Positions 9,397 to 60,921 of a DNA stretch of 64,000 nucleotides are shown here, piece after piece. Source of the DNA: Alphaproteobacteria bacterium (GTDB lineage Bacteria > Pseudomonadota > Alphaproteobacteria > CAAHEQ01 > UBA3637). The position numbers and the translations under genes are program-made. Positions within the stretch are counted from its first letter, which is position 1; each line of letters opens with the position of its first letter. The notes beneath the pieces were generated by a model. That model saw only the letters and a list, made by a program, of their open reading frames with translations. It did no database searches and was not told where the DNA came from. Location: contig JAFTSJ010000009.1 of the NCBI GenBank assembly GCA_017467335.1, positions 852-64,851 of the forward strand, in the 5' to 3' direction.

Positions 9397-11067
9397 ATGG
9401 CGGAAAAGAGTGTTTTTGATCAAATCAAGAAACAGAACGGTGAAAGTTTCGCAAAGGCAATTCGTACATACGATAATGGTATTTTTGATATTCCCAACAT
9501 TGTCAATATTGTAAAATATGCAGGTCGAGAAGCTGAACCGCTTATGCAGTACCTAATTTCATTGAAAAAAATCAAAATAGAAGATGTTGAAGAAGTTAAG
9601 GATCCTTTTGAATTGTTGTCCGATGCCGGTTATGATGCCTATTATGCGACTAACCTTAATGAACAAAATCGGATTTCAAAATATTTTGAACCGAATGAAA
9701 TGCTATGTACGTTTCGTGACCCAAGCAGATTCCAAAGATATCATATTATCAATGCTGTTAAAAAAAATGTTTCGGAGATTAAAAGAGAAGATTTTAGAGG
9801 TAAAGAACAAAGAGAAGATGCTTATGGAACAAGTGTTATATCTATTCAGGTTGCAATGCAAGGAGGATTTATTTCAATCAAAAATAGATACAATCACTCT
9901 ATCTCGAATCCAGATAACACATTTAACAGTAATCCGGACAACATTATCAAAGGACTATCAAATTCTTTAAAAAAATATCTTCAAGTTGATTTTTCTTCTT
10001 CTAATGTTTCTCTTCCTAACAATTTTGTCAATATCAACAATCAAATTGTTCGATATCACATAGAAGAAAATAATGTTTATTTCGCCGATAGTTATTATGC
10101 TAAAGACGGAAACATTTTCCCATTAAATAAAGATAATGAATTGATGTTGGATACATGTATATTAAACATTAAAAATCGTACACTGTATGATCCAAGTTGT
10201 TGCCTGGAACCAATATCAATAGACAATATTCAAGAAAAAAGTGGTAGTTTTGTGAGTGTGTTAGCTCATGAATTAAAAGGCAAGAGTCTACAAATTGTAA
10301 AAAGCAAAGATGGCGGACACAGTGTTTTTGCAAATGGAAAAACAATTATCAGTGTGAAAAATGGAGAAATTACAGCCTTAAATCTGCCAAATACAACAAT
10401 AGTGGGTGATGATTTCTTGCGAAACAATAAAGCCTTACAAATCCTTAATGCACAGAACTTAACAATAGTGGGGAATAATTTCTTGTATCGCAATGAAAAC
10501 TTACAAATCCTTAATACACCGAACTTAATAAAGGTGGGGGATAATTTTTTGTGGTTCAACAAAATCTTACACACCCTTAATGCACAGAACTTAACAATAG
10601 TGGGGAATGATTTCTTGCATCACAATGAAACCTTACAAATCCTTAATACGCCAAACTTAACAAAGGTGGGGGATGGTTTCTTGTGGTTCAACAAAATCTT
10701 ACACACCCTTAATGCGCAGAACTTAACAATAGTGGGGAATGATTTCTTGCGGTGCAACAAAATGTTTAAAACCCTTGATATGCATAAGTTAACAACGGTG
10801 GGTTGTTGTTTCTTACAGAGCAACAAAATCTTACAAATCCTTAATGCACAGAACTTAACAACGGTTGGAGATTATTTCTTGTGGTTCAACGAAAACTTAC
10901 AAATCCTTAATACACCGAAGTTAAAACGGATAGGCAAAATATCTTCCACACTCAAAGCTCTTTTGCAGAAAGCTCAAACTAGAAATCCATCTAACAATAA
11001 AAAATTGAATATACATAAAAAAAACACTGTAACAATATCAGTTACTCGTAGAAAAAACACTCGATAA
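9397..11067 (+). CDS. leucine-rich repeat protein with unknown N-terminal domain
   Basis: 556 aa with an AAAGGAG RBS. The C-terminal half has about 8.5 tandem 22-aa units LxxLNxxNLxxVGxxFLxxNxx. The N-terminal ~325 aa has no motif I recognise. Confidence 0.85.
   Translation: MAEKSVFDQIKKQNGESFAKAIRTYDNGIFDIPNIVNIVKYAGREAEPLMQYLISLKKIKIEDVEEVKDPFELLSDAGYDAYYATNLNEQNRISKYFEPNEMLCTFRDPSRFQRYHIINAVKKNVSEIKREDFRGKEQREDAYGTSVISIQVAMQGGFISIKNRYNHSISNPDNTFNSNPDNIIKGLSNSLKKYLQVDFSSSNVSLPNNFVNINNQIVRYHIEENNVYFADSYYAKDGNIFPLNKDNELMLDTCILNIKNRTLYDPSCCLEPISIDNIQEKSGSFVSVLAHELKGKSLQIVKSKDGGHSVFANGKTIISVKNGEITALNLPNTTIVGDDFLRNNKALQILNAQNLTIVGNNFLYRNENLQILNTPNLIKVGDNFLWFNKILHTLNAQNLTIVGNDFLHHNETLQILNTPNLTKVGDGFLWFNKILHTLNAQNLTIVGNDFLRCNKMFKTLDMHKLTTVGCCFLQSNKILQILNAQNLTTVGDYFLWFNENLQILNTPKLKRIGKISSTLKALLQKAQTRNPSNNKKLNIHKKNTVTISVTRRKNTR
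10369..10935 (+). repeat. in-frame tandem repeat, 66-bp unit (132-bp super-unit), encoding the LRRs
   Basis: Near-identical blocks recur, for example CTTAATGCACAGAACTTAACAATAGTGGGGAAT at ~10444, ~10576, ~10708 and, with two substitutions, ~10840. Confidence 0.85.
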
Positions 11068-24879: not shown

Positions 24880-25986
24880 ATGAAGAAAAATTTTACGGCT
24901 ACGGCGTCATATGTTGAATTTTTGATTGATGATTGGTTGGATACTCTTGTTGTGAAAGGTTTTCCTGAACATTGGACGGATACGGTTAAAAAATTAGCTC
25001 GTATTCATTCATCAGATAGGAAAATTGAAGTTTATCCGGAACAGGTTAACCGTTTTTTTCAATTGATTGATAATCAAGCCGTTTTATTGGGAAATGATGA
25101 ATTGTCAGATCAGTTATCAATTGAAAAATGTAAAGAACGGCATGCCAAGTATTTAGATGGAGCTCAAACAGCAACTCATATATACCTAAATAAAATTGTT
25201 ACACGGTTGTATGAAGCTAATCCTGATATTTTAGGGAAAAAACCCAATCCTTTTTATTTTCATGCACAATATCCTAACAAAAAAACAGATGGTATGGCGA
25301 TTTATACAAGCCAATGGCCTCCAATGATTATACTTCGATTGTATGATATCGGTACTCTTTATCAAACAGAAGATGTATTGGCATGGGATTTGGCACATGA
25401 ATTGATTCATTTGACGTTATTGCGTCAATTAAGTGATAAAGTAACAACAAATAAAGAAGAAAGTGTTTGTGATTTGTTAGCTACGGTTTGTGCTATGCGG
25501 GCTGGTTATTCGGGTAAAGGAGCCGTTGTCGATTGGGCTCAAAGGGTAAAGTTGAAGTCATCTGTTTTGACAGAGTGTCTTTTGTATAATAAATACAATA
25601 AAACTTTAACGGCACAAGAAATTGCTTCATTAACATCGGAAGATGCTTTTCATTTATACGATGCTTGTGAACGAGGCATAATAACCTTGCCTTCAGACGT
25701 TATTGAACAGTTAAAAGTATATCAGAACGAAGAAGTAAAACATGTTCATCCACATGTATTGACACGTATTTTATATACAAATGAAATGGTTAATTACTTA
25801 CTGAAACAACAATGCGTTCCTGATATTCGATATATAACACCAATTCCGGCATATTTAATTGATTTAATTGCTTCAAAACAAAGATTAAGGCGTCCGATAA
25901 TACCGAAAAAGGTATCTCCTTATTTGATGAATAAAATCAAAAAACGCTACTTAAAACAACAAAAATTGAAAAAACGTACGACATGA
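24880..25986 (+). CDS. hypothetical protein with HExxH motif (possible zincin)
   Basis: 368 aa, starting 4 nt after the antiporter stop. It contains one AHELIHL motif and is otherwise an orphan. Confidence 0.6.
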   Translation: MKKNFTATASYVEFLIDDWLDTLVVKGFPEHWTDTVKKLARIHSSDRKIEVYPEQVNRFFQLIDNQAVLLGNDELSDQLSIEKCKERHAKYLDGAQTATHIYLNKIVTRLYEANPDILGKKPNPFYFHAQYPNKKTDGMAIYTSQWPPMIILRLYDIGTLYQTEDVLAWDLAHELIHLTLLRQLSDKVTTNKEESVCDLLATVCAMRAGYSGKGAVVDWAQRVKLKSSVLTECLLYNKYNKTLTAQEIASLTSEDAFHLYDACERGIITLPSDVIEQLKVYQNEEVKHVHPHVLTRILYTNEMVNYLLKQQCVPDIRYITPIPAYLIDLIASKQRLRRPIIPKKVSPYLMNKIKKRYLKQQKLKKRTT

Positions 25987-26005
25987 TTTAATGGTGTATA
26001 TTATA

Positions 26006-26036
26006 AAAATGGGGGATTTTCTCCCCCATTTTTTAT
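26006..26036. terminator. bidirectional terminator hairpin
   Basis: AAAATGGGGGA-TTTT-CTCCCCCATTTT between convergent genes. Confidence 0.75.
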
Positions 26037-29000
26037 TTTTTTACACACCAAACGTTACCGTCATCATCTGTTTCAATCATTCGATTACAACCACTTGCTT
26101 CACACACAGCTTTTGCTTTGGTCGTATCAGTTATCATGATGTCAACATCTGTTGTGCAACTTTCTAATTGACCCGTACTATCGATAAAATAACCATCTTC
26201 GGCTTGTTTGGAACAATACCATATTGTTTTATCACTTGTCTGTTGACTGAATGCAACCCGATTGCACGCTTCGCATTGTTGACGATAAACCGCTTCCGTT
26301 CCGATTTCACGCACATTGTTGTCTTCACTGCATACAAGACATTTACCGTTTTGAGTTGATTGCCATCCTGAACCGGTTGTACAAGTCGGAACACAATATT
26401 GTAAACCGTTTGACCCGACTGTTAAAACTTGACGGTTACCACATTGTCCGCATGTTGCCGTATGCTCGGATTTCAGTCGATAGGTTGCATTGATATAGGA
26501 ACTTGGTTCACTATTAGGCGTGCATTTGACACAATCGGGTGTATTGTTCATAAATTCATTTGTTTGACATCCACCCAACGAACAAACACCACCACTGTAT
26601 GTGCGTTGCATTACTTTGGTATTACATAAAGCACATTGAACCTGCGATGTTGATACCGCCTTTTCCGTTGTGCATTCATGACAATTACCGGAGTCATCTC
26701 TAAATTTAAAGCCATCATAATCACCATCGAGGTAAGGTTGAATCGCATCTTTTAAATCTGAATCCATATTGGTTGGAAATGTTAAATTCTTGCTGTTACA
26801 AACACCACTCACACCAGGGTCAATCAATATACATCTTGATATGTTGTCCATAATTACACTTGTAATTCGATTATTGCACCGCCGACATTGTTCAGCCATA
26901 ATAAGAGAATTAGGCGCAATCCCATATTGAGAATCTCCAACACGATCACAGCGCATACAATCTCCCATTGTTCCCCGATACCTCACCATACCATCTGTAT
27001 CATTTGGGCAGGTTTTCAATACACATAAACCATCTCCATATGAAACTTTTTCCCGAGGATAGGCTGTATTTTGACAGACTTTCTCACAATGGTCCTCATC
27101 AACATACGTATTATAATAAGTTGAATATTTACCATTATCTTGTGAACATGGCATACACATTCCACCTGTATTTTGCCACTGATTCTCGGGACAAATTTTC
27201 AAACATTTTTGATTTCCGTTTGAATCCGTATAAATCCAACGAGTAGCAACTGCATCAGCATCTGTGCTATACTCGCCATTCTTTTTACGACAGTTTTTAA
27301 TACAACCCGAATCTTCTTCGGACACAATGTCTTTTCCATTAACGTCACAATTGTACGGTTCGCCGTCTTTTCCCCGAAATTGTCCCGTTTTTAATGCTTT
27401 TTCAATCATACAGTATCCGTTTCTAGCCGTTCGACCACACGCAACACACATTTTTTCTTCATAGGTGTCTATTTCATCCGTTCCACCTGTTGCAATAGAT
27501 CTACTTGATGTATCACTACATGCATAACATTGGCCTCCACTACGATATTGTCGTTCACAAGGCGTGCTGTCATCACCATCCGTACAAGCAGTGATAGAGG
27601 CATCTTCATCCGGTTGTTCACAAATGGGGCGACAAAGTGCATTCGAACCCAATTCACGTATCGGATTACCGTTGTCATCTTTGCAATTTTCAGTACACTG
27701 TGCGTTAATTTTTGACGAACTCCAACCAGAAGAACCTTTATACTCTCTATAACCCCCACCTTCCCAACCGGAAACACGATACTGGACATTATCTGTACAA
27801 GGATAACATGTCGGATTACCGCCAACTACTAAAAACGTACCTTTTTCACAATTCGGAAAATAATCACAAGAATTTTGCTGATAATAATTTTCCCACCAAA
27901 CAAGTCCACAGGCTTCACATAATTTACGAGCTTTATCTGTTCTTGGAATTCTATAACCTGTATCATTTGGCGAGCCATCTGGTTTACGGCACGGAATACA
28001 CCCATCATTTAACGATTCGTATGTAACACCCCGAATACACGCAACAGCACAATACGTTGTACCTGTAGATTCATCAACCGTAACCGTATGCGTATTAGCA
28101 CACGCATTACATTGTTCAATACCCGTTGTGTCATCTTCTATACTTAATGTGGTATCAGTAAATTTATCCGAACTGATTTCAATGGCGTTAATATCACTAC
28201 ATGGAATACATGCCCCGTTTTTGGCACGATATTCTTGGGGTTTTGACGAATCATAATTTTTACCTTCATTACAAACACGCATTTCCTGACAGGTATGATC
28301 TGACGTATTACAAACATAATTTTCGCCATGAGAAGAACAATCCTGATTAACCATACATTCAACGCATGCCCCTGTTTCACCGTTATCATAACAAAACGGT
28401 TTATTGGTTCCTGTACAGCTGTTTTTACACGTCATTTTATCGGTATCACAGGTAGCGTTTCCGCAAGGGCTACTACAATCCATATCTTCAACGCATGGGT
28501 CACCGCTTTGTCCGGTTCCTGCTTCATTATTTTCCGAATCTAAAAATGATGTAAAAACGATTAAATTATCTGTTTCATCTTCTCCACAAATAGAGGCATT
28601 GCCGGTATATTTGACTAAATCCCCCTCCCCTTGGGCAACTTGCACAAATTGAATCCCTTTAACAATACCGTTTAAGTTCATATTAACCACATTTTTACAC
28701 ACACGGGAAGAAACGCCTTCTACATAGGTTTTAAACGCAACGTCCGGATGAGATGTCATATAAATCGGGTATCCTGTACCTGTCATATCCGGAAATTCAT
28801 CAAAATCCGTGCCATCCTCACTGGGGTCTGGCAGGGGTTGTTCTTGATATTTATGCCAAACATCAGTCGCACGCAGATTCACTTCATACACAATATCATT
28901 GGCTCGATATTTATCCATCGCAAAGGTGTAACCGTAAATCCCACCGATTGAAAGAACGCCGATAATCGCCAAAACGCCCAATATTTCCACCATACTGCGT

Positions 29001-29059
29001 CCTGTTTCGGCTGTTTTTTGTTTAAAATATCCGTTTAAAAAAGCGTTTAAAATTTTCAT
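26033..29059 (-). CDS. cysteine-rich modular surface protein with prepilin-like N-terminal segment
   Basis: 1008 aa with a GAGGGG RBS. The N-terminus ...ETG/RSMVEILGVLAIIGVLSIGG has Gly at -1, Glu at +5 and a hydrophobic helix. By hand count there are about 78 Cys, 17 of them in CxxC motifs, arranged in about 10 divergent modules. Confidence 0.85.
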   Translation of the reverse strand: MKILNAFLNGYFKQKTAETGRSMVEILGVLAIIGVLSIGGIYGYTFAMDKYRANDIVYEVNLRATDVWHKYQEQPLPDPSEDGTDFDEFPDMTGTGYPIYMTSHPDVAFKTYVEGVSSRVCKNVVNMNLNGIVKGIQFVQVAQGEGDLVKYTGNASICGEDETDNLIVFTSFLDSENNEAGTGQSGDPCVEDMDCSSPCGNATCDTDKMTCKNSCTGTNKPFCYDNGETGACVECMVNQDCSSHGENYVCNTSDHTCQEMRVCNEGKNYDSSKPQEYRAKNGACIPCSDINAIEISSDKFTDTTLSIEDDTTGIEQCNACANTHTVTVDESTGTTYCAVACIRGVTYESLNDGCIPCRKPDGSPNDTGYRIPRTDKARKLCEACGLVWWENYYQQNSCDYFPNCEKGTFLVVGGNPTCYPCTDNVQYRVSGWEGGGYREYKGSSGWSSSKINAQCTENCKDDNGNPIRELGSNALCRPICEQPDEDASITACTDGDDSTPCERQYRSGGQCYACSDTSSRSIATGGTDEIDTYEEKMCVACGRTARNGYCMIEKALKTGQFRGKDGEPYNCDVNGKDIVSEEDSGCIKNCRKKNGEYSTDADAVATRWIYTDSNGNQKCLKICPENQWQNTGGMCMPCSQDNGKYSTYYNTYVDEDHCEKVCQNTAYPREKVSYGDGLCVLKTCPNDTDGMVRYRGTMGDCMRCDRVGDSQYGIAPNSLIMAEQCRRCNNRITSVIMDNISRCILIDPGVSGVCNSKNLTFPTNMDSDLKDAIQPYLDGDYDGFKFRDDSGNCHECTTEKAVSTSQVQCALCNTKVMQRTYSGGVCSLGGCQTNEFMNNTPDCVKCTPNSEPSSYINATYRLKSEHTATCGQCGNRQVLTVGSNGLQYCVPTCTTGSGWQSTQNGKCLVCSEDNNVREIGTEAVYRQQCEACNRVAFSQQTSDKTIWYCSKQAEDGYFIDSTGQLESCTTDVDIMITDTTKAKAVCEASGCNRMIETDDDGNVWCVKK

Positions 29060-29104
29060 AGACCCCTCACTGCAAAAGTTAACAAAATCAGACGGTTATT
29101 TTTC

Positions 29105-29136
29105 AAAAATGTGTCAAAAAAACGTCCCTTTTTTGA
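29105..29136. repeat. inverted repeat, left arm
   Basis: AAAAATGTGTCAAAAAAACGTCCCTTTTTTGA. Its reverse complement matches 29243-29275 except for one extra A. Confidence 0.9.
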
Positions 29137-29212
29137 ACGCTTTTTTTTGGCAGGGGTTACACTTTTTTAAAAACAAAAAAATCAATAAAAATCAAATAAT
29201 TATAAATTTTAG

Positions 29213-29241
29213 TTGACAAACGAAATGATATGAAATATTAT
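29213..29241 (+). promoter_or_regulatory. consensus sigma70 promoter between the inverted repeats, reading away from the Cys-rich gene
   Basis: TTGACA (29213-29218), 17-nt spacer, TATTAT (29236-29241). Confidence 0.6.
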
Positions 29242-29242
29242 G

Positions 29243-29275
29243 TCAAAAAAAGGGACGTTTTTTTGACACATTTTT
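29243..29275. repeat. inverted repeat, right arm
   Basis: TCAAAAAAAGGGACGTTTTTTTGACACATTTTT. This arm is itself an 11-bp/6-nt-loop palindrome (TGTCAAAAAAA GGGACG TTTTTTTGACA). Confidence 0.9.
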
Positions 29276-35292: not shown

Positions 35293-35384
35293 GAAATATC
35301 CTTTCTGTTTGCATCAACTATAAGCCGAAAGACAACAAATTGCAAACAAAAAGTGACATATGATTTTGATAAAAGCAAAGAAAA

Positions 35385-35686
35385 ACAGAGGTATTCTGTT
35401 GCTGGGAACCTCCAAACCCCACCATTTCGCTCATATGAAAATGGAATTGATGGTCTAGGTACCTAATTAGGCAGCCATTGCGACCGGAGCAAAATTATCA
35501 TTTGCATTTATTTATATTAGCCCGATAACGGCGGTACAATGCCGAATGCAAGAGAAAGCCTTTATTATGCGTGTCGATCCTATTTCACCCCCATAAAGTA
35601 TTGAATGGTGGAGGTGTCGGGTACCGCCCCCGAGTCCACAGACATCTATTCTACTTTTCGTTTAGCATCATAGTCAGTTACCTGAC
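35385..35686 (-). ncRNA. ssrA: tmRNA, circularly permuted two-piece type (acceptor piece ~35686-35606, coding piece ~35592-35385)
   Basis: The acceptor piece ends TCGGG-GGCGGTA-CCCGA-CACCTCC-A-CCA. After a 13-nt spacer the coding piece begins GGGGGTGAAATAGGATCGAC (compare E. coli GGGGCTGATTCTGGATTCGAC). The acceptor helix has G3:U70. The tag frame 35505-35467 encodes ANDNFAPVAMAA*. A hairpin plus T-run lies at 35400-35378. Confidence 0.88.
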
Positions 35687-35692
35687 GATTTG

Positions 35693-35720
35693 ATGCTATC
35701 ACATTTTGAAACGAAAAGCA
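35693..35720 (-). promoter_or_regulatory. sigma70-type promoter for ssrA
   Basis: Minus strand TTGCTT-16 nt-TAGCAT. Confidence 0.45.
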
Positions 35721-35742
35721 AGTCCATTTATCTGAAATACAC

Positions 35743-40511: not shown

Positions 40512-41444
40512 ATGAAAAAAACAAAAACAATTCCGGAAACATTAACTGTTACTGAAACACCATCTTGTTGTTCAACACATGATTGTTGCTGTGGTTCTGA
40601 ATGCCATTGTCATTCAGAAAAAACAAGCGGTTGCGGATTAAAAACAGTTTTGATGGCTGCTTCCATGTGGGGTAGTGCTTTTGTTATTGCCGGTTCTATT
40701 TTAATGTCCGGTGGTCCAAGTATTTCACCGATTCGTCCGATTGTAACACCGAAGGCACCAACTCCGGCTGTTGCTCCGGTTGCAACTTCTGACGAAGCCA
40801 TGAAAAAATTCGTTGAACAAAATCCGAAATTGATTTTTGAAACAGTTCAAAACTACTTAACACAGTTGGAAAAAGAAGCTCGTGCCGCCGAAGAAGCTAA
40901 TCCGAAAATGGCTCCGCAAGAAATCATTGATGAAATTTTAGCTGATAAATCAAATTATTCTTTGGGTAACCCGAACGGTAAATACGTTATCATTGAATTT
41001 TTCGACCACAAATGCGGATGGTGTAAAAAAACAAATGAAGCTTTAAAAGCCGCTCTTGCAAAACCGGAAAACAAAAATATTCGTTGGATTCCGATTGACA
41101 CACCGATTTTCGGTGAACAATCCGAAAAAATTGCTCGTTTCGTTTTAGCTGCCGGTAAACAAGGTAAATATGCTCAAATGCATGATGCCGTTTCATCAGC
41201 CAAAGCTTTTGAAGATGCCAACTTTGTTGAAATGGGTAAAAAAATCGGCTTAGATACAGACAAATTACTTGCTGATGCTAACAGTGAAGAATTGAAAGCC
41301 AAATTAGTCAAAAACCAAGAATATGCCGGTAAGTTAAACATTAACGGTGTTCCGATGTTAATCGTTAACGGCCGTATCAATCCGGGTGCTTTATTGGGTG
41401 ACAGACTTGAAAAAGCTCTCAAAGAAGCACAAGAAATGAAATAA
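40512..41444 (+). CDS. membrane-anchored DsbA-family thiol:disulfide oxidoreductase with Cys/His-rich N-terminal tail
   Basis: AAGGAGAG RBS. The N-terminal tail reads TPSCCSTHDCCCGSECHCHSEKTSGCG, followed by a TM helix and then a DsbA domain with FFDHKCGWCKK (CxxC) and GVPMLIVNG. Confidence 0.78.
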   Translation: MKKTKTIPETLTVTETPSCCSTHDCCCGSECHCHSEKTSGCGLKTVLMAASMWGSAFVIAGSILMSGGPSISPIRPIVTPKAPTPAVAPVATSDEAMKKFVEQNPKLIFETVQNYLTQLEKEARAAEEANPKMAPQEIIDEILADKSNYSLGNPNGKYVIIEFFDHKCGWCKKTNEALKAALAKPENKNIRWIPIDTPIFGEQSEKIARFVLAAGKQGKYAQMHDAVSSAKAFEDANFVEMGKKIGLDTDKLLADANSEELKAKLVKNQEYAGKLNINGVPMLIVNGRINPGALLGDRLEKALKEAQEMK

Positions 41445-59421: not shown

Positions 59422-60921
59422 CTATATCCCTTCTTTTATACGCATAATGATATTGTCTTTATCTTTAACCAACTGCGAATCCCGTAACAACAAATTTTCA
59501 ATAGTTCGAACAGCATGAATAATTGTTGTATGATCTCGCCCGAATTGTGTTCCGATATCCGGTAAAGATAATGCCGTCAAGGTTTTAGATAAATACATCG
59601 CTAATTGACGAGGACGGGCAATTTTACGTTCACGCCGATTAGATTTAATATCAGATAATCTTAATCCGTAATAATCAGCCGTCACCTGCTGAATTTCAGC
59701 AACGGAAAATTGGCGTTCGTAAACTTGCAAAATATCCTTTAAGACAGAACGTGCCGTATCCATGTTAATTGGCGTTCCAATCAATTCAGCATGAGCAATC
59801 AACCGTTTAAAAGCACCTTCCAATTCACGAATACTGGCCGTAATATTTTTAGCTAAATACCGAATAACATCTTCCGGAATGTAAACACGGGTTTCTTCGG
59901 CTTTCTTTTGTAAAATACCCAATCTTAATTCGTATGTTGTCGGCTGAATTTGAACAACCAAACCCTGTGCAATACGGGTTTTAATTCTATCCTCAATCCC
60001 TTGTAAATCCATCGGATTGGTATCTGCTGACAAAATAATCTTCTTCCCTCGAGCAATTAACTGATTAAATGTATGGAAAAATTCTTCCTGAGAGGCCGGT
60101 TTACCAAAAATAAACTGAACATCATCAATCATCAGCACATCAACATCCCGAAATAATTTTCGAAACGAATCTGTATTTTTATGCTGTAAAGCTTTAATAA
60201 AGTGTTGAAAAAATTGCTCTGACGTCAAATATAAAACATTTTGTTCCGGATAAAGTTCCTTAATACGCCAAGCAATTGCGTGCATTAAGTGCGTTTTACC
60301 CAATCCAACGGACGCATGTAAATACAACGGATTAAAAACAACCGTGTTATCTTCGGCAACACGTCTGGCCGCCGCATAAGCAAATTCATTGGACGGACCG
60401 ACAACAAAAGAATCAAATGTATGACTTTTATCCAAAAAACACGGAATTGTTTCACCATCAACATCAATACGCATTTCAACTTTTCCGGCCGCATGCATTT
60501 TAATACTTTCAACAAAAGAAACAACATTGGGTGATGTTCCCTTGGCACTTAACGGTTGTATCGTCTGGGTTGAAAGAGCCGTATCCCCTTGTTGATTTAA
60601 CTGAAACGTTAATCCGCCAATCATCGGATTTTCTTTTTGCCATAAAGCCAATATCTGATCAGCATAATTTCGTTTAATCAATTCATGAATACACGGTGAC
60701 GGAACACACAAATTAACTTGATTATCCACCAATTTATCCGGCGTCACTCGCTTTAACCAACGCAAGGCTAATTTATCCCCCATTTGCGTTTCTAATGCTT
60801 GACAAACACTTTGCCATTCTTGTCGCAATGCGTTCTTTTCTGACTGAACGGCATTGGCAACCGTTTCAGGAGCATTGGTTTGTAAAAAAAGCAGTTGTTC
60901 TTGTTTCATGTCCGTTAACAT
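59422..60921 (-). CDS. dnaA: chromosomal replication initiator protein DnaA
   Basis: Walker A GLGKTHL, box VII/sensor motifs, and the C-terminal DNA-binding helix (FGRDHTTIIHAVR). Confidence 0.95.
   Translation of the reverse strand: MLTDMKQEQLLFLQTNAPETVANAVQSEKNALRQEWQSVCQALETQMGDKLALRWLKRVTPDKLVDNQVNLCVPSPCIHELIKRNYADQILALWQKENPMIGGLTFQLNQQGDTALSTQTIQPLSAKGTSPNVVSFVESIKMHAAGKVEMRIDVDGETIPCFLDKSHTFDSFVVGPSNEFAYAAARRVAEDNTVVFNPLYLHASVGLGKTHLMHAIAWRIKELYPEQNVLYLTSEQFFQHFIKALQHKNTDSFRKLFRDVDVLMIDDVQFIFGKPASQEEFFHTFNQLIARGKKIILSADTNPMDLQGIEDRIKTRIAQGLVVQIQPTTYELRLGILQKKAEETRVYIPEDVIRYLAKNITASIRELEGAFKRLIAHAELIGTPINMDTARSVLKDILQVYERQFSVAEIQQVTADYYGLRLSDIKSNRRERKIARPRQLAMYLSKTLTALSLPDIGTQFGRDHTTIIHAVRTIENLLLRDSQLVKDKDNIIMRIKEGI

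Follow-up and report, generated by a model that had tools for sequence, protein, structure and literature searches.

A 1008-residue cysteine-rich protein with a type IV pilin-like N-terminus, one member of a multigene family in uncultured gut Alphaproteobacteria

Introduction

What kind of protein is built from 1008 amino acids of which 78 (7.7%) are cysteine, and how might a bacterium display it? The question is raised by a gene on the minus strand (26033..29059) of a 64,000-nucleotide stretch of contig JAFTSJ010000009.1 (assembly GCA_017467335.1, Alphaproteobacteria bacterium), here called the window. An initial annotation, made from the letters alone, read the product as a modular, disulfide-knotted stalk on a prepilin-like anchor and considered that it might have been acquired from a eukaryote. 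The open reading frame (ORF), its ATG and the cysteine count all stand, as does the uneven distribution of the cysteines: only C121 and C158 lie before residue 186, the other 76 come after residue 185, and the 17 CxxC motifs together account for 34 cysteines. The gene is the sole ORF of the window with more than 3.5% cysteine and the sole bearer of the N-terminal motif described below.

The protein is probably a giant, modular, type IV pilin-like protein, that is, a pilin or tip adhesin drawn from a multigene family. Its resemblance to pilins in sequence and architecture, the structure of its family and the presence of a pilus machine in related genomes are matters of observation, and it is with these that the argument begins.

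A pilin-like anchor

The gene and the parts of its product are as follows.

26033..29059, minus strand: whole gene for the 1008-aa modular pilin-like protein, stop codon at 26033-26035 (ORF listing, composition, about 100 full-length homologues)
29000..29059, minus strand: putative leader peptide, residues 1-20, ending in E18-x-G20 with Gly at -1 (conservation among 89 homologues)
28850..28999, minus strand: pilin-like alpha-1 helix, residues 21-70, with Arg at +1, E25 (+5), a hydrophobic AIIGVL core, Y44 (+24) and DKYRAND (in-register pilin matches in PDB; AlphaFold2 helix)
28505..28849, minus strand: globular head, residues 71-185, modelled as four beta-strands and two short helices, with invariant C121 and C158 (AlphaFold2 domain model, conservation)
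28223..28504, minus strand: connector dense in cysteine (15 in residues 186-279) and without homology to the repeats (hhalign of segments M0 and M1 against the other modules; predicted local distance difference test, pLDDT, 60-78)
26036..28222, minus strand: eleven homologous Cys-rich repeats of about 45-95 aa, M2-M12, residues 280-1008 (hhalign all-against-all; pLDDT mostly 85-96)

The N-terminus reads as first described, M1...E18-T-G20/R21-S-M-V-E25-ILGVLAIIGVLSIGGIYGY, the slash marking the predicted point of cleavage. Its prepilin-like layout is further borne out by in-register matches to pilins of known structure, by a model with a long helix and four strands, by pilin-sized paralogues and by the type IVb machine of related genomes. 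In an alignment of 89 family members, 29-69% identical to the window protein, G20 (-1) and E25 (+5) are invariant, as they are in 43 diverse anchors, and E18 is kept in at least 90% of the 89 sequences. Across carriers of the anchor the near-invariant motif is E-x-G/R-S-M-V-E-(I/M)-L-G-(V/T)-L-A-(I/V)-I-G-V-L-S...G-Y-x-Y-x-M-D-K-Y-R-A-N, preceded by leaders that range from about 6 to more than 80 aa and are usually 6-10 aa long.

When a 61-column profile of the anchor was compared with all PDB sequences, every one of the 11 matches was a type IV pilin or pseudopilin (PilA-N/geopilin, PAK pilin, PilE and PpdD among them), aligned in register at Gly-1, Glu+5 and AIIG(I/V)L. Individually these matches are weak (E=0.026-2.3); together they point to pilins. 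A profile of the whole N-terminal module likewise drew 9 pilins in 11 PDB matches, the type IVb pilin TcpA included, and a profile of the entire family found among PDB sequences nothing but weak pilin N-termini and a CXXC zinc finger at E=0.53. NCBIfam ranks highest, both for the N-terminus and for the pilin-sized paralogues, models named 'prepilin peptidase-dependent pilin/protein' and TIGR02532, at 10.7-12.6 bits.

AlphaFold2 was run on the family alignment at full length and on the N-terminal module alone (residues 17-185). The full model (mean pLDDT 84.6; predicted template-modelling score, pTM, 0.67) has a helix at 25-70 and strands at 98-104, 108-116, 136-143 and 165-172, and the module by itself (pLDDT 87.6, pTM 0.77) is predicted as a 52-residue helix (H3-54) packed on four strands, which in the model is the general architecture of a pilin. 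The residue at +1 is usually Phe in type IVa pilins and Met, Leu, Trp, Ser or Val in type IVb pilins. The annotated PilV of Bosea has an 18-aa leader and Leu at +1, so a 20-aa leader is unremarkable; a long leader and a +1 residue other than Phe are normal for type IVb pilins.

A stalk of cysteine-rich repeats

Behind the head and the connector the protein consists of a single kind of unit. The initial count of about ten modules holds up well, since 11 segments, M2-M12, are mutually homologous by profile-profile comparison: with segments cut from the 89-sequence alignment, hhalign gives most pairs a probability of 90-98% and E-values of 1e-12 to 1e-6. The typical unit runs G-x-CxxC ... CxxC-(G/N)-x-R ... 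Y-C-x3-5-C, and the AlphaFold2 model renders the stalk as a long series of short beta-hairpins and short helices. The cysteine pattern is not a product of chance, for 44 of the 78 cysteines never vary and 69 are found in 94% or more of the homologues despite the low overall identity.

The repeats have no relatives in Pfam, NCBIfam or PDB. Pfam and NCBIfam searches with the whole protein, the N-terminus alone and the stalk alone returned nothing above threshold, and Foldseek with the whole model found no PDB structure at E<=1e-3. With the whole chain as query, Pvs25/Pfs25, the Entamoeba Gal/GalNAc lectin and follistatin ranked highest in PDB, none of them below E=0.17. Among viral models (BFVD) a single unnamed protein reached E=9.5e-6 but with a TM-score of 0.08, and the next rows were Cys-rich proteins of Pyramimonas orientalis virus, one of them annotated as ephrin-receptor-like.

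What the cysteines do can be read in part from the way in which they are lost. C910 and C932, each the second cysteine of one of two successive CxxC motifs, disappear jointly in 39-40 of the 89 homologues while C907 and C929 stay, and the residues that replace them (S, G, K, E, A or D at one position; Y, A, S, M, V or I at the other) are not metal ligands. C492 and C501 are likewise lost together. Because cysteines vanish in independent pairs, a CxxC...CxxC unit would hold two disulfides running between the motifs, in place of one Zn(Cys)4 site; the pattern thus indicates that the stalk cysteines form disulfides, as far as sequences can tell. The proposal of a disulfide-bonded stalk is in this sense supported indirectly, by pairwise loss and by the presence of DsbA-like genes, one of them in the window.

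40512..41444, plus strand: context gene for a membrane-anchored thiol:disulfide oxidoreductase of the DsbA family, active-site motif CGWC (Pfam DSBA E=1e-19; sequence)

This enzyme is a plausible oxidant for the 78 cysteines. CPHC is the canonical DsbA active site, and a secreted thioredoxin-fold protein with CPHC is encoded in related DNA (L098) directly after a four-gene array of small pilin-like proteins. As a separate matter, the DsbA-family protein of the window has an unusual N-terminal tail rich in Cys and His (PSCCSTHDCCCGSECHCH) ahead of its membrane helix, whose composition suggests that it may bind metal on the cytoplasmic side.

A multigene family within a larger superfamily

The window protein is one member of a multigene family. 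A homology search gathered 148 proteins, of which some 100 are full-length, with 870-1150 aa and 70-96 Cys. No Pfam domain is present in any of them, and their sole name is 'hypothetical protein [Alphaproteobacteria bacterium]'; an exact-sequence look-up found no record of the window protein itself, and a literature search for the anchor motif G/RSMVE found no paper. At least 568 related stretches came out of a scan that took one genome for each species, and all that were kept lie in metagenome-assembled genomes (MAGs) of uncultured Alphaproteobacteria from the guts of buffalo, sheep, roe deer, rabbit and human. Several full-length paralogues of about 900-1,100 aa occur per genome; in the DNA fetched, MAG SIG53 has at least 16 copies and RGIG7750 at least 12. 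No conserved gene neighbourhood was found for the family.

The anchor reaches much further than the stalk. An exhaustive search with the anchor profile brought together 6,032 clusters (50% identity), with E<=1e-10 for 4,768 of these, and the carriers range from 66 to 1,117 aa. In a Pfam scan of 91 other carriers almost none had a domain; two had Mucin2_WxxW repeats (best E=1.6e-19). One carrier gave a weak match to the extracellular-link (Xlink) domain. Mucin2_WxxW and Xlink are host-glycoprotein-like modules, here borne on a pilin-like anchor.

At the small end of the range stand carriers of about 120-150 aa, the size expected of structural pilins, with 0-4 Cys and 6-7-aa leaders, often in tandem. 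Arrays of four such genes (120-149 aa) lie at L078 16022-18200 and L098 10001-11774. Within the L078 array a 31-nt inverted repeat encloses 269 nt between two divergent genes. Elsewhere on L098 (19165-20241, minus strand) is a 358-aa protein whose record names an mTERF domain (mitochondrial transcription termination factor family).

A type IVb pilus machine in related genomes

If such proteins are pilins, something must assemble them, and pilus machinery is encoded in four related MAGs that carry the family (L018, L022, L054 and L080). About 5 kb from a family member, L018 and L022 contain genes for a PilO-like protein, for a product of 352 aa, for a T2SSE ATPase of 704 aa and for a T2SSF platform protein; the upstream part is found in L080 and L054, where the genes encode a protein of 355 aa, one with a TcpQ domain, a secretin whose N-terminus is lipoprotein-like and PAP_PilO at full length. 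The Pfam E-values are 8e-68 for T2SSE, 8e-27 for T2SSF and 5e-26 for PAP_PilO, and housekeeping genes follow or flank the cluster. The PilO protein matches 'type 4b pilus protein PilO2' encoded on plasmids. The annotated type 4b operon of Bosea pBSY19_1 has the same gene order and goes on to a PilV tip adhesin, and its proteins match those of the MAGs one for one: ATPase (38% identity, E=2e-115), platform (36%, E=9e-86), secretin (28%, E=4e-62) and PilO2 (26%, E=9e-33). Given this agreement with the Bosea operon, the clade has a chromosomal type IVb pilus machine. The MAG cluster contains no pilin or peptidase genes in cis.

A further ATPase was seen apart from this cluster. L073 16446-18329 encodes a 627-aa protein with proline-rich tandem repeats in its N-terminal half and a C-terminal PilT/VirB11-like ATPase domain that is 34-39% identical to the second ATPase of type IVb operons; it stands alone among the NusA and IF2 genes.

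Weighing the explanations

The main rival to a pilin is an uncleaved inner-membrane anchor. By this account the superfamily would consist of bitopic inner-membrane proteins with the Cys-rich domain in the periplasm, and the likeness to pilins would reflect distant ancestry or convergence. We judge it unlikely, although the evidence in its favour is at the same time the evidence that weighs against a pilin. The residue at +1 is Arg in 119 of 120 carriers, a non-canonical choice where a hydrophobic residue was looked for; we know of no pilin with Arg at this position. In classical mutagenesis of the Pseudomonas pilin, Gly-1 was reportedly essential and position +1 tolerant of substitution. Pfam N_methyl does not match the N-terminus even at E<=10, the TIGR02532 scores of the pilin-sized paralogues stay below that model's cut-off of 16.3 bits, and the helix is conserved well beyond its hydrophobic part (DKYRAN[DE]I...), which classical pilins do not typically show. 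Among pilins no significant structural neighbour of the head domain turned up, the best PDB row in Foldseek for the N-terminal module being Amuc_1100 (E=0.12), which we take to be a pilin-like protein of Akkermansia. The main gap is the A24 prepilin peptidase, of which neither the expression G.GD.K combined with a count of transmembrane segments nor tblastn with an annotated A24 peptidase found an example in the window or in 1.31 Mb of related DNA, itself a small fraction of about 20 genomes. The machinery, seen in related MAGs, is absent from the window, where Pfam scans of ORFs of at least 150 aa and tblastn confirm the early statement that pilus genes, type II secretion genes and a prepilin peptidase are all missing. 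The family genes are scattered among housekeeping genes and share no conserved neighbourhood with the machinery, and with tens of carriers per genome the proximity of about 5 kb in L018 and L022 could be chance. A rod of about 100 kDa would, moreover, have to fit through the secretin.

A plain membrane anchor, however, has no need of E-x-G-R-S-M-V-E to be near-invariant over thousands of clusters whose leaders are very variable, a combination that points to a processing site. The pilin register is exact for about 25 residues, and tandem pilin-sized paralogues on the one hand and a type IVb machine lacking pilin genes in cis on the other fit together as subunits and machine. The failure of the hidden Markov models is compatible with a type IVb pilin, since two annotated type IVb pilins used as controls, Bosea PilV (11.8 bits) and an E. 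coli T4b major pilin (11.6 bits), miss the same cut-off.

Two further accounts concern the stalk. That its repeats are Zn(Cys)4 metal-binding modules, CxxC...CxxC knuckles suited to an anaerobic gut organism, seems improbable. The spacing CxxC-(13-30)-CxxC, in which the first motif falls within a beta-hairpin and the second sits at the N-terminus of a helix, resembles the geometry of a zinc ribbon or treble clef, the zinc finger mentioned above is the sole non-pilin PDB sequence that the family profile matched, and the habitat is anoxic. Loss of C910 and C932 with C907 and C929 kept would nevertheless break a four-ligand site, and genes for DsbA-family oxidoreductases lie both in the window and next to pilin arrays; the reading of the CxxC pairs as zinc fingers was rejected on the co-loss pattern. 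A eukaryotic or giant-virus origin of the stalk, serving mimicry of a host or protist, we find hardly credible. Its best structural neighbours, weak as they are, are Cys-rich repeat proteins of eukaryotes and giant viruses, two other anchor carriers have Mucin2_WxxW repeats, and the GC content of the gene is 40% against about 34-36% in its flanks. Yet no Pfam model of Giardia variant surface proteins (VSPs), furin-like, EGF or ephrin-receptor-like repeats matches at E<=1, no PDB fold matches at E<=1e-3, and TM-scores are about 0.06-0.08. The repeats are conserved over about 100 bacterial homologues, in a strictly bacterial superfamily with one anchor, and the excess of Cys and Gly codons would itself be expected to raise GC. 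The at least 6,000 clusters that share the anchor point instead to expansion within the lineage. The suggestion of host mimicry or eukaryotic acquisition is therefore not supported, with no sequence similarity to eukaryotic repeat families and a structural likeness no better than E=0.17 in PDB; likewise, nothing in the analysis shows the host to be a symbiont of protists, as had also been proposed.

How the protein might work

As a type IV pilin-like protein, the product would span the inner membrane, its N-terminus on the cytoplasmic side and its C-terminus in the periplasm, where DsbA-type enzymes would oxidise the stalk, leaving two inter-motif disulfides in each CxxC...CxxC unit. A prepilin peptidase would cut the leader after Gly20, and the type IVb machine would then assemble the small paralogues into a filament that takes up the pilin module, most likely at its tip. 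From there the rod of about 820 residues would extend away from the cell and act in adhesion or as a variable surface antigen. We infer that the leader is cut, that the protein enters a filament, that it sits at the tip and that it is adhesive. Several divergent paralogues per genome would provide diversity of binding or antigenicity, a role like that of the PilV variants made by the shufflon of R64-type thin pili, and expression may be phase-variable by way of the promoter cassette that follows.

A candidate switch upstream of the gene

Immediately 5' of the gene lies an inverted repeat with a promoter between its arms.

29105..29134, no strand: proximal arm, 46 nt 5' of the ATG, of an inverted repeat that is perfect over 30 nt, with palindromic half-sites on either side of the asymmetric core CGTCCC
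29135..29245, no strand: candidate invertible element, the 111 nt between the two arms (L025, L005, L008 and L011 have homologous segments)
29213..29241, plus strand: sigma-70-like promoter TTGACA-17-TATTAT (11/12), directed away from the gene (promoter scan)
29246..29275, no strand: distal arm, whose core GGGACG reverse-complements that of the proximal arm (sequence analysis)

The promoter is the best sigma-70-like site of the region, and in four homologous cassettes from other MAGs both hexamers are kept, the spacer varies and the direction is again away from the gene. Nor is the arrangement confined to one locus. Counting perfect inverted repeats of at least 16 nt with a spacer of 40-350 nt upstream of a gene, 15 of 100 anchor genes have one, compared with 2 of 714 control ORFs (Fisher p=9e-13); with mismatches allowed the figure is 23 of 101 anchor genes, and the arms have core motifs in common. 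The cassette has the anatomy of an invertible promoter in the OFF state, which makes it a candidate phase-variation switch.

A flipped 111-nt segment would give the junction ...ATATTATGTCA + proximal arm + GAAAAATAAC..., and flipped copies were sought in several ways. All 23 pairs of homologous segments, from paralogues and orthologues, have the same orientation. At one locus, ten independent contigs show no flip: nine have the same upstream region, eight of them base for base, and the tenth (L093) differs by rearrangement. The identical 897-aa protein (P0083) and its cassette are joined to GreA in one sample and to UvrA in nine others (L093 1-720 against L086 1-720), the alternative junction falling exactly at the outer edge of the distal repeat element. 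Two JGI metagenome scans with the repeat arm gave zero matches.

The window gene itself has a 98%-identical copy (L085 1-3200 against window 26043-29138) on a contig that ends at the inverted repeat. From about 10 nt before the stop codon this copy diverges completely from the window, and its 3' neighbours are Acyl_transf_3 and DUF2157 genes, not the HExxH-containing ORF found here; the gene seems to occupy different genomic contexts. Contig breaks also recur at the small-pilin arrays (L078, L100 and L101). The L085 copy, the L093 junction and these breaks are indirect hints of recombination. As to the enzyme, four of five tyrosine-recombinase matches are XerC/XerD-like pairs, and the only small recombinase seen in the sampled DNA is a 198-aa protein of FimB/FimE size (L043 12723-13319, minus strand, MAG SIG53), encoded 1.6 kb from a carrier gene. 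That the cassette is a real inversion or recombination switch is possible but less likely than not; a fixed pair of operators or insulators is the alternative.

Comparison with known systems and implications

Modular pilins with bulky C-terminal modules are an established class, and the concept allows for modules not yet represented in domain databases (Raynaud et al., 2021; PMC8179133). The survey in that paper required the IPR012902 signature, and its largest example has 860 aa (PMC8179133). The window protein shares the design of Streptococcus sanguinis PilB and PilC, namely an N-terminal pilin module with a bulky, independent C-terminal module and a proposed display by the filament: residues 21-185 are pilin-like and are followed by 820 Cys-rich residues, although the InterPro signature used by those authors is absent. 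It departs from them in its 1008 aa, its new 11-fold Cys-rich repeat, its Arg at +1, and an anchor found in tens of genes per genome.

The R64-type PilV and its shufflon offer a second parallel, with alternative C-terminal parts on one pilin-type N-terminus, and the MAG machinery matches an operon that ends in PilV. Here, in contrast, separate paralogous genes, and not the shuffling of DNA within one gene, are the source of diversity, and the machinery is chromosomal and without pilin or peptidase genes in cis. The protein was considered as a PilV shufflon adhesin and rejected as such: tblastn with Bosea PilV found no match in the MAG DNA, and the gene contains no shufflon-like repeats.

Lineage-specific expansions of proteins with a prepilin-type N-terminus, such as the DUF1559 proteins of Planctomycetes and those of Elusimicrobia, also combine, in many paralogues per genome, a pilin-like N-terminal helix with varied C-terminal parts of unknown function; their motif is of the canonical GFTLIE type, recognised by N_methyl and TIGR02532. 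The present anchor family differs in its G/RSMVE(I/M)LG motif, its Cys-rich members and its restriction, as far as sampled, to MAGs of gut Alphaproteobacteria. The stalk resembles Giardia VSPs, the Entamoeba Gal/GalNAc lectin and ephrin-receptor- or furin-like repeats in its predicted form, a long extracellular rod made up of short beta-hairpin modules that are rich in disulfides and in CxxC motifs, and in belonging to a multigene family. It shows no detectable sequence homology to these protist and giant-virus repeats, is anchored by an N-terminal pilin-like helix and not by a C-terminal transmembrane segment or glycosylphosphatidylinositol, and belongs to a bacterial context.

For the cassette, the comparators are E. 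coli fimS with FimB/FimE, the capsule invertons of Bacteroides and the vsa inversions of Mycoplasma pulmonis. Like invertons, it places inverted repeats around a short promoter segment 5' of a surface-structure gene, its palindromic half-sites enclose an asymmetric core that is inverted between the arms, and it recurs 5' of many paralogues. Unlike known invertons, it has been seen in a single orientation, has no linked recombinase beyond one FimB-sized candidate, and has a short spacing of 111 nt.

Modular pilins are thought to endow simple type IV filaments with many functions, and surveys of them depend on the canonical N-terminal signature. A non-canonical anchor, G/RSMVE, has escaped annotation despite at least 6,000 clusters in widespread, never-cultured bacteria of human and animal guts. 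The family adds a new disulfide-rich repeat fold and is notable besides for its anchor, the size of its superfamily and its candidate switch. Arg at +1 raises a testable question about the specificity of prepilin peptidases, and the cassettes are a candidate phase-variation or recombination system for a large repertoire of surface proteins. Anchor, repeat and switch all bear on attachment to, or evasion of, hosts, phages or protists. Taken together, and more speculatively than we would wish to press, the elements could form a bacterial counterpart of the variant-surface-protein systems of protozoa. Tens of genes per genome would encode pilin-anchored, disulfide-rich rods displayed by a single chromosomal type IVb machine, a prepilin peptidase of unusual specificity (Arg at +1) would cleave them, and lox-like invertible promoter cassettes would toggle the genes, with recombination at these sites reshuffling them between contexts. 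So ambitious a scheme is unlikely to hold as a whole.

Local context in the window

Two small features flank the coding sequence.

29063..29068, minus strand: Shine-Dalgarno-like GAGGGG, 3 nt 5' of the ATG (read from the sequence)
26005..26033, no strand: GC-rich hairpin flanked by runs of A and T, terminator-like on both strands, between convergent genes and after the stop codon (terminator scan)

The convergent neighbour (24880-25986, plus strand) is a 368-aa ORF without a family match, whose HELIH sequence, an HExxH motif, suggests that it may be a metalloprotease. Further away, at 9397-11067 (plus strand), a 556-aa ORF without a Pfam match has in its C-terminal half leucine-rich-type repeats of about 22 residues (LQILNAQNLTIVGNNFL...). 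An alpha-type permuted transfer-messenger RNA at 35384-35725 is a mark of an alphaproteobacterial host. DnaA is encoded at 59422-60921 (minus strand), about 34 kb from the gene. GC skew changes sign at about 26 kb, right where the two genes converge, as does gene orientation; the change in skew may simply track the coding strand.

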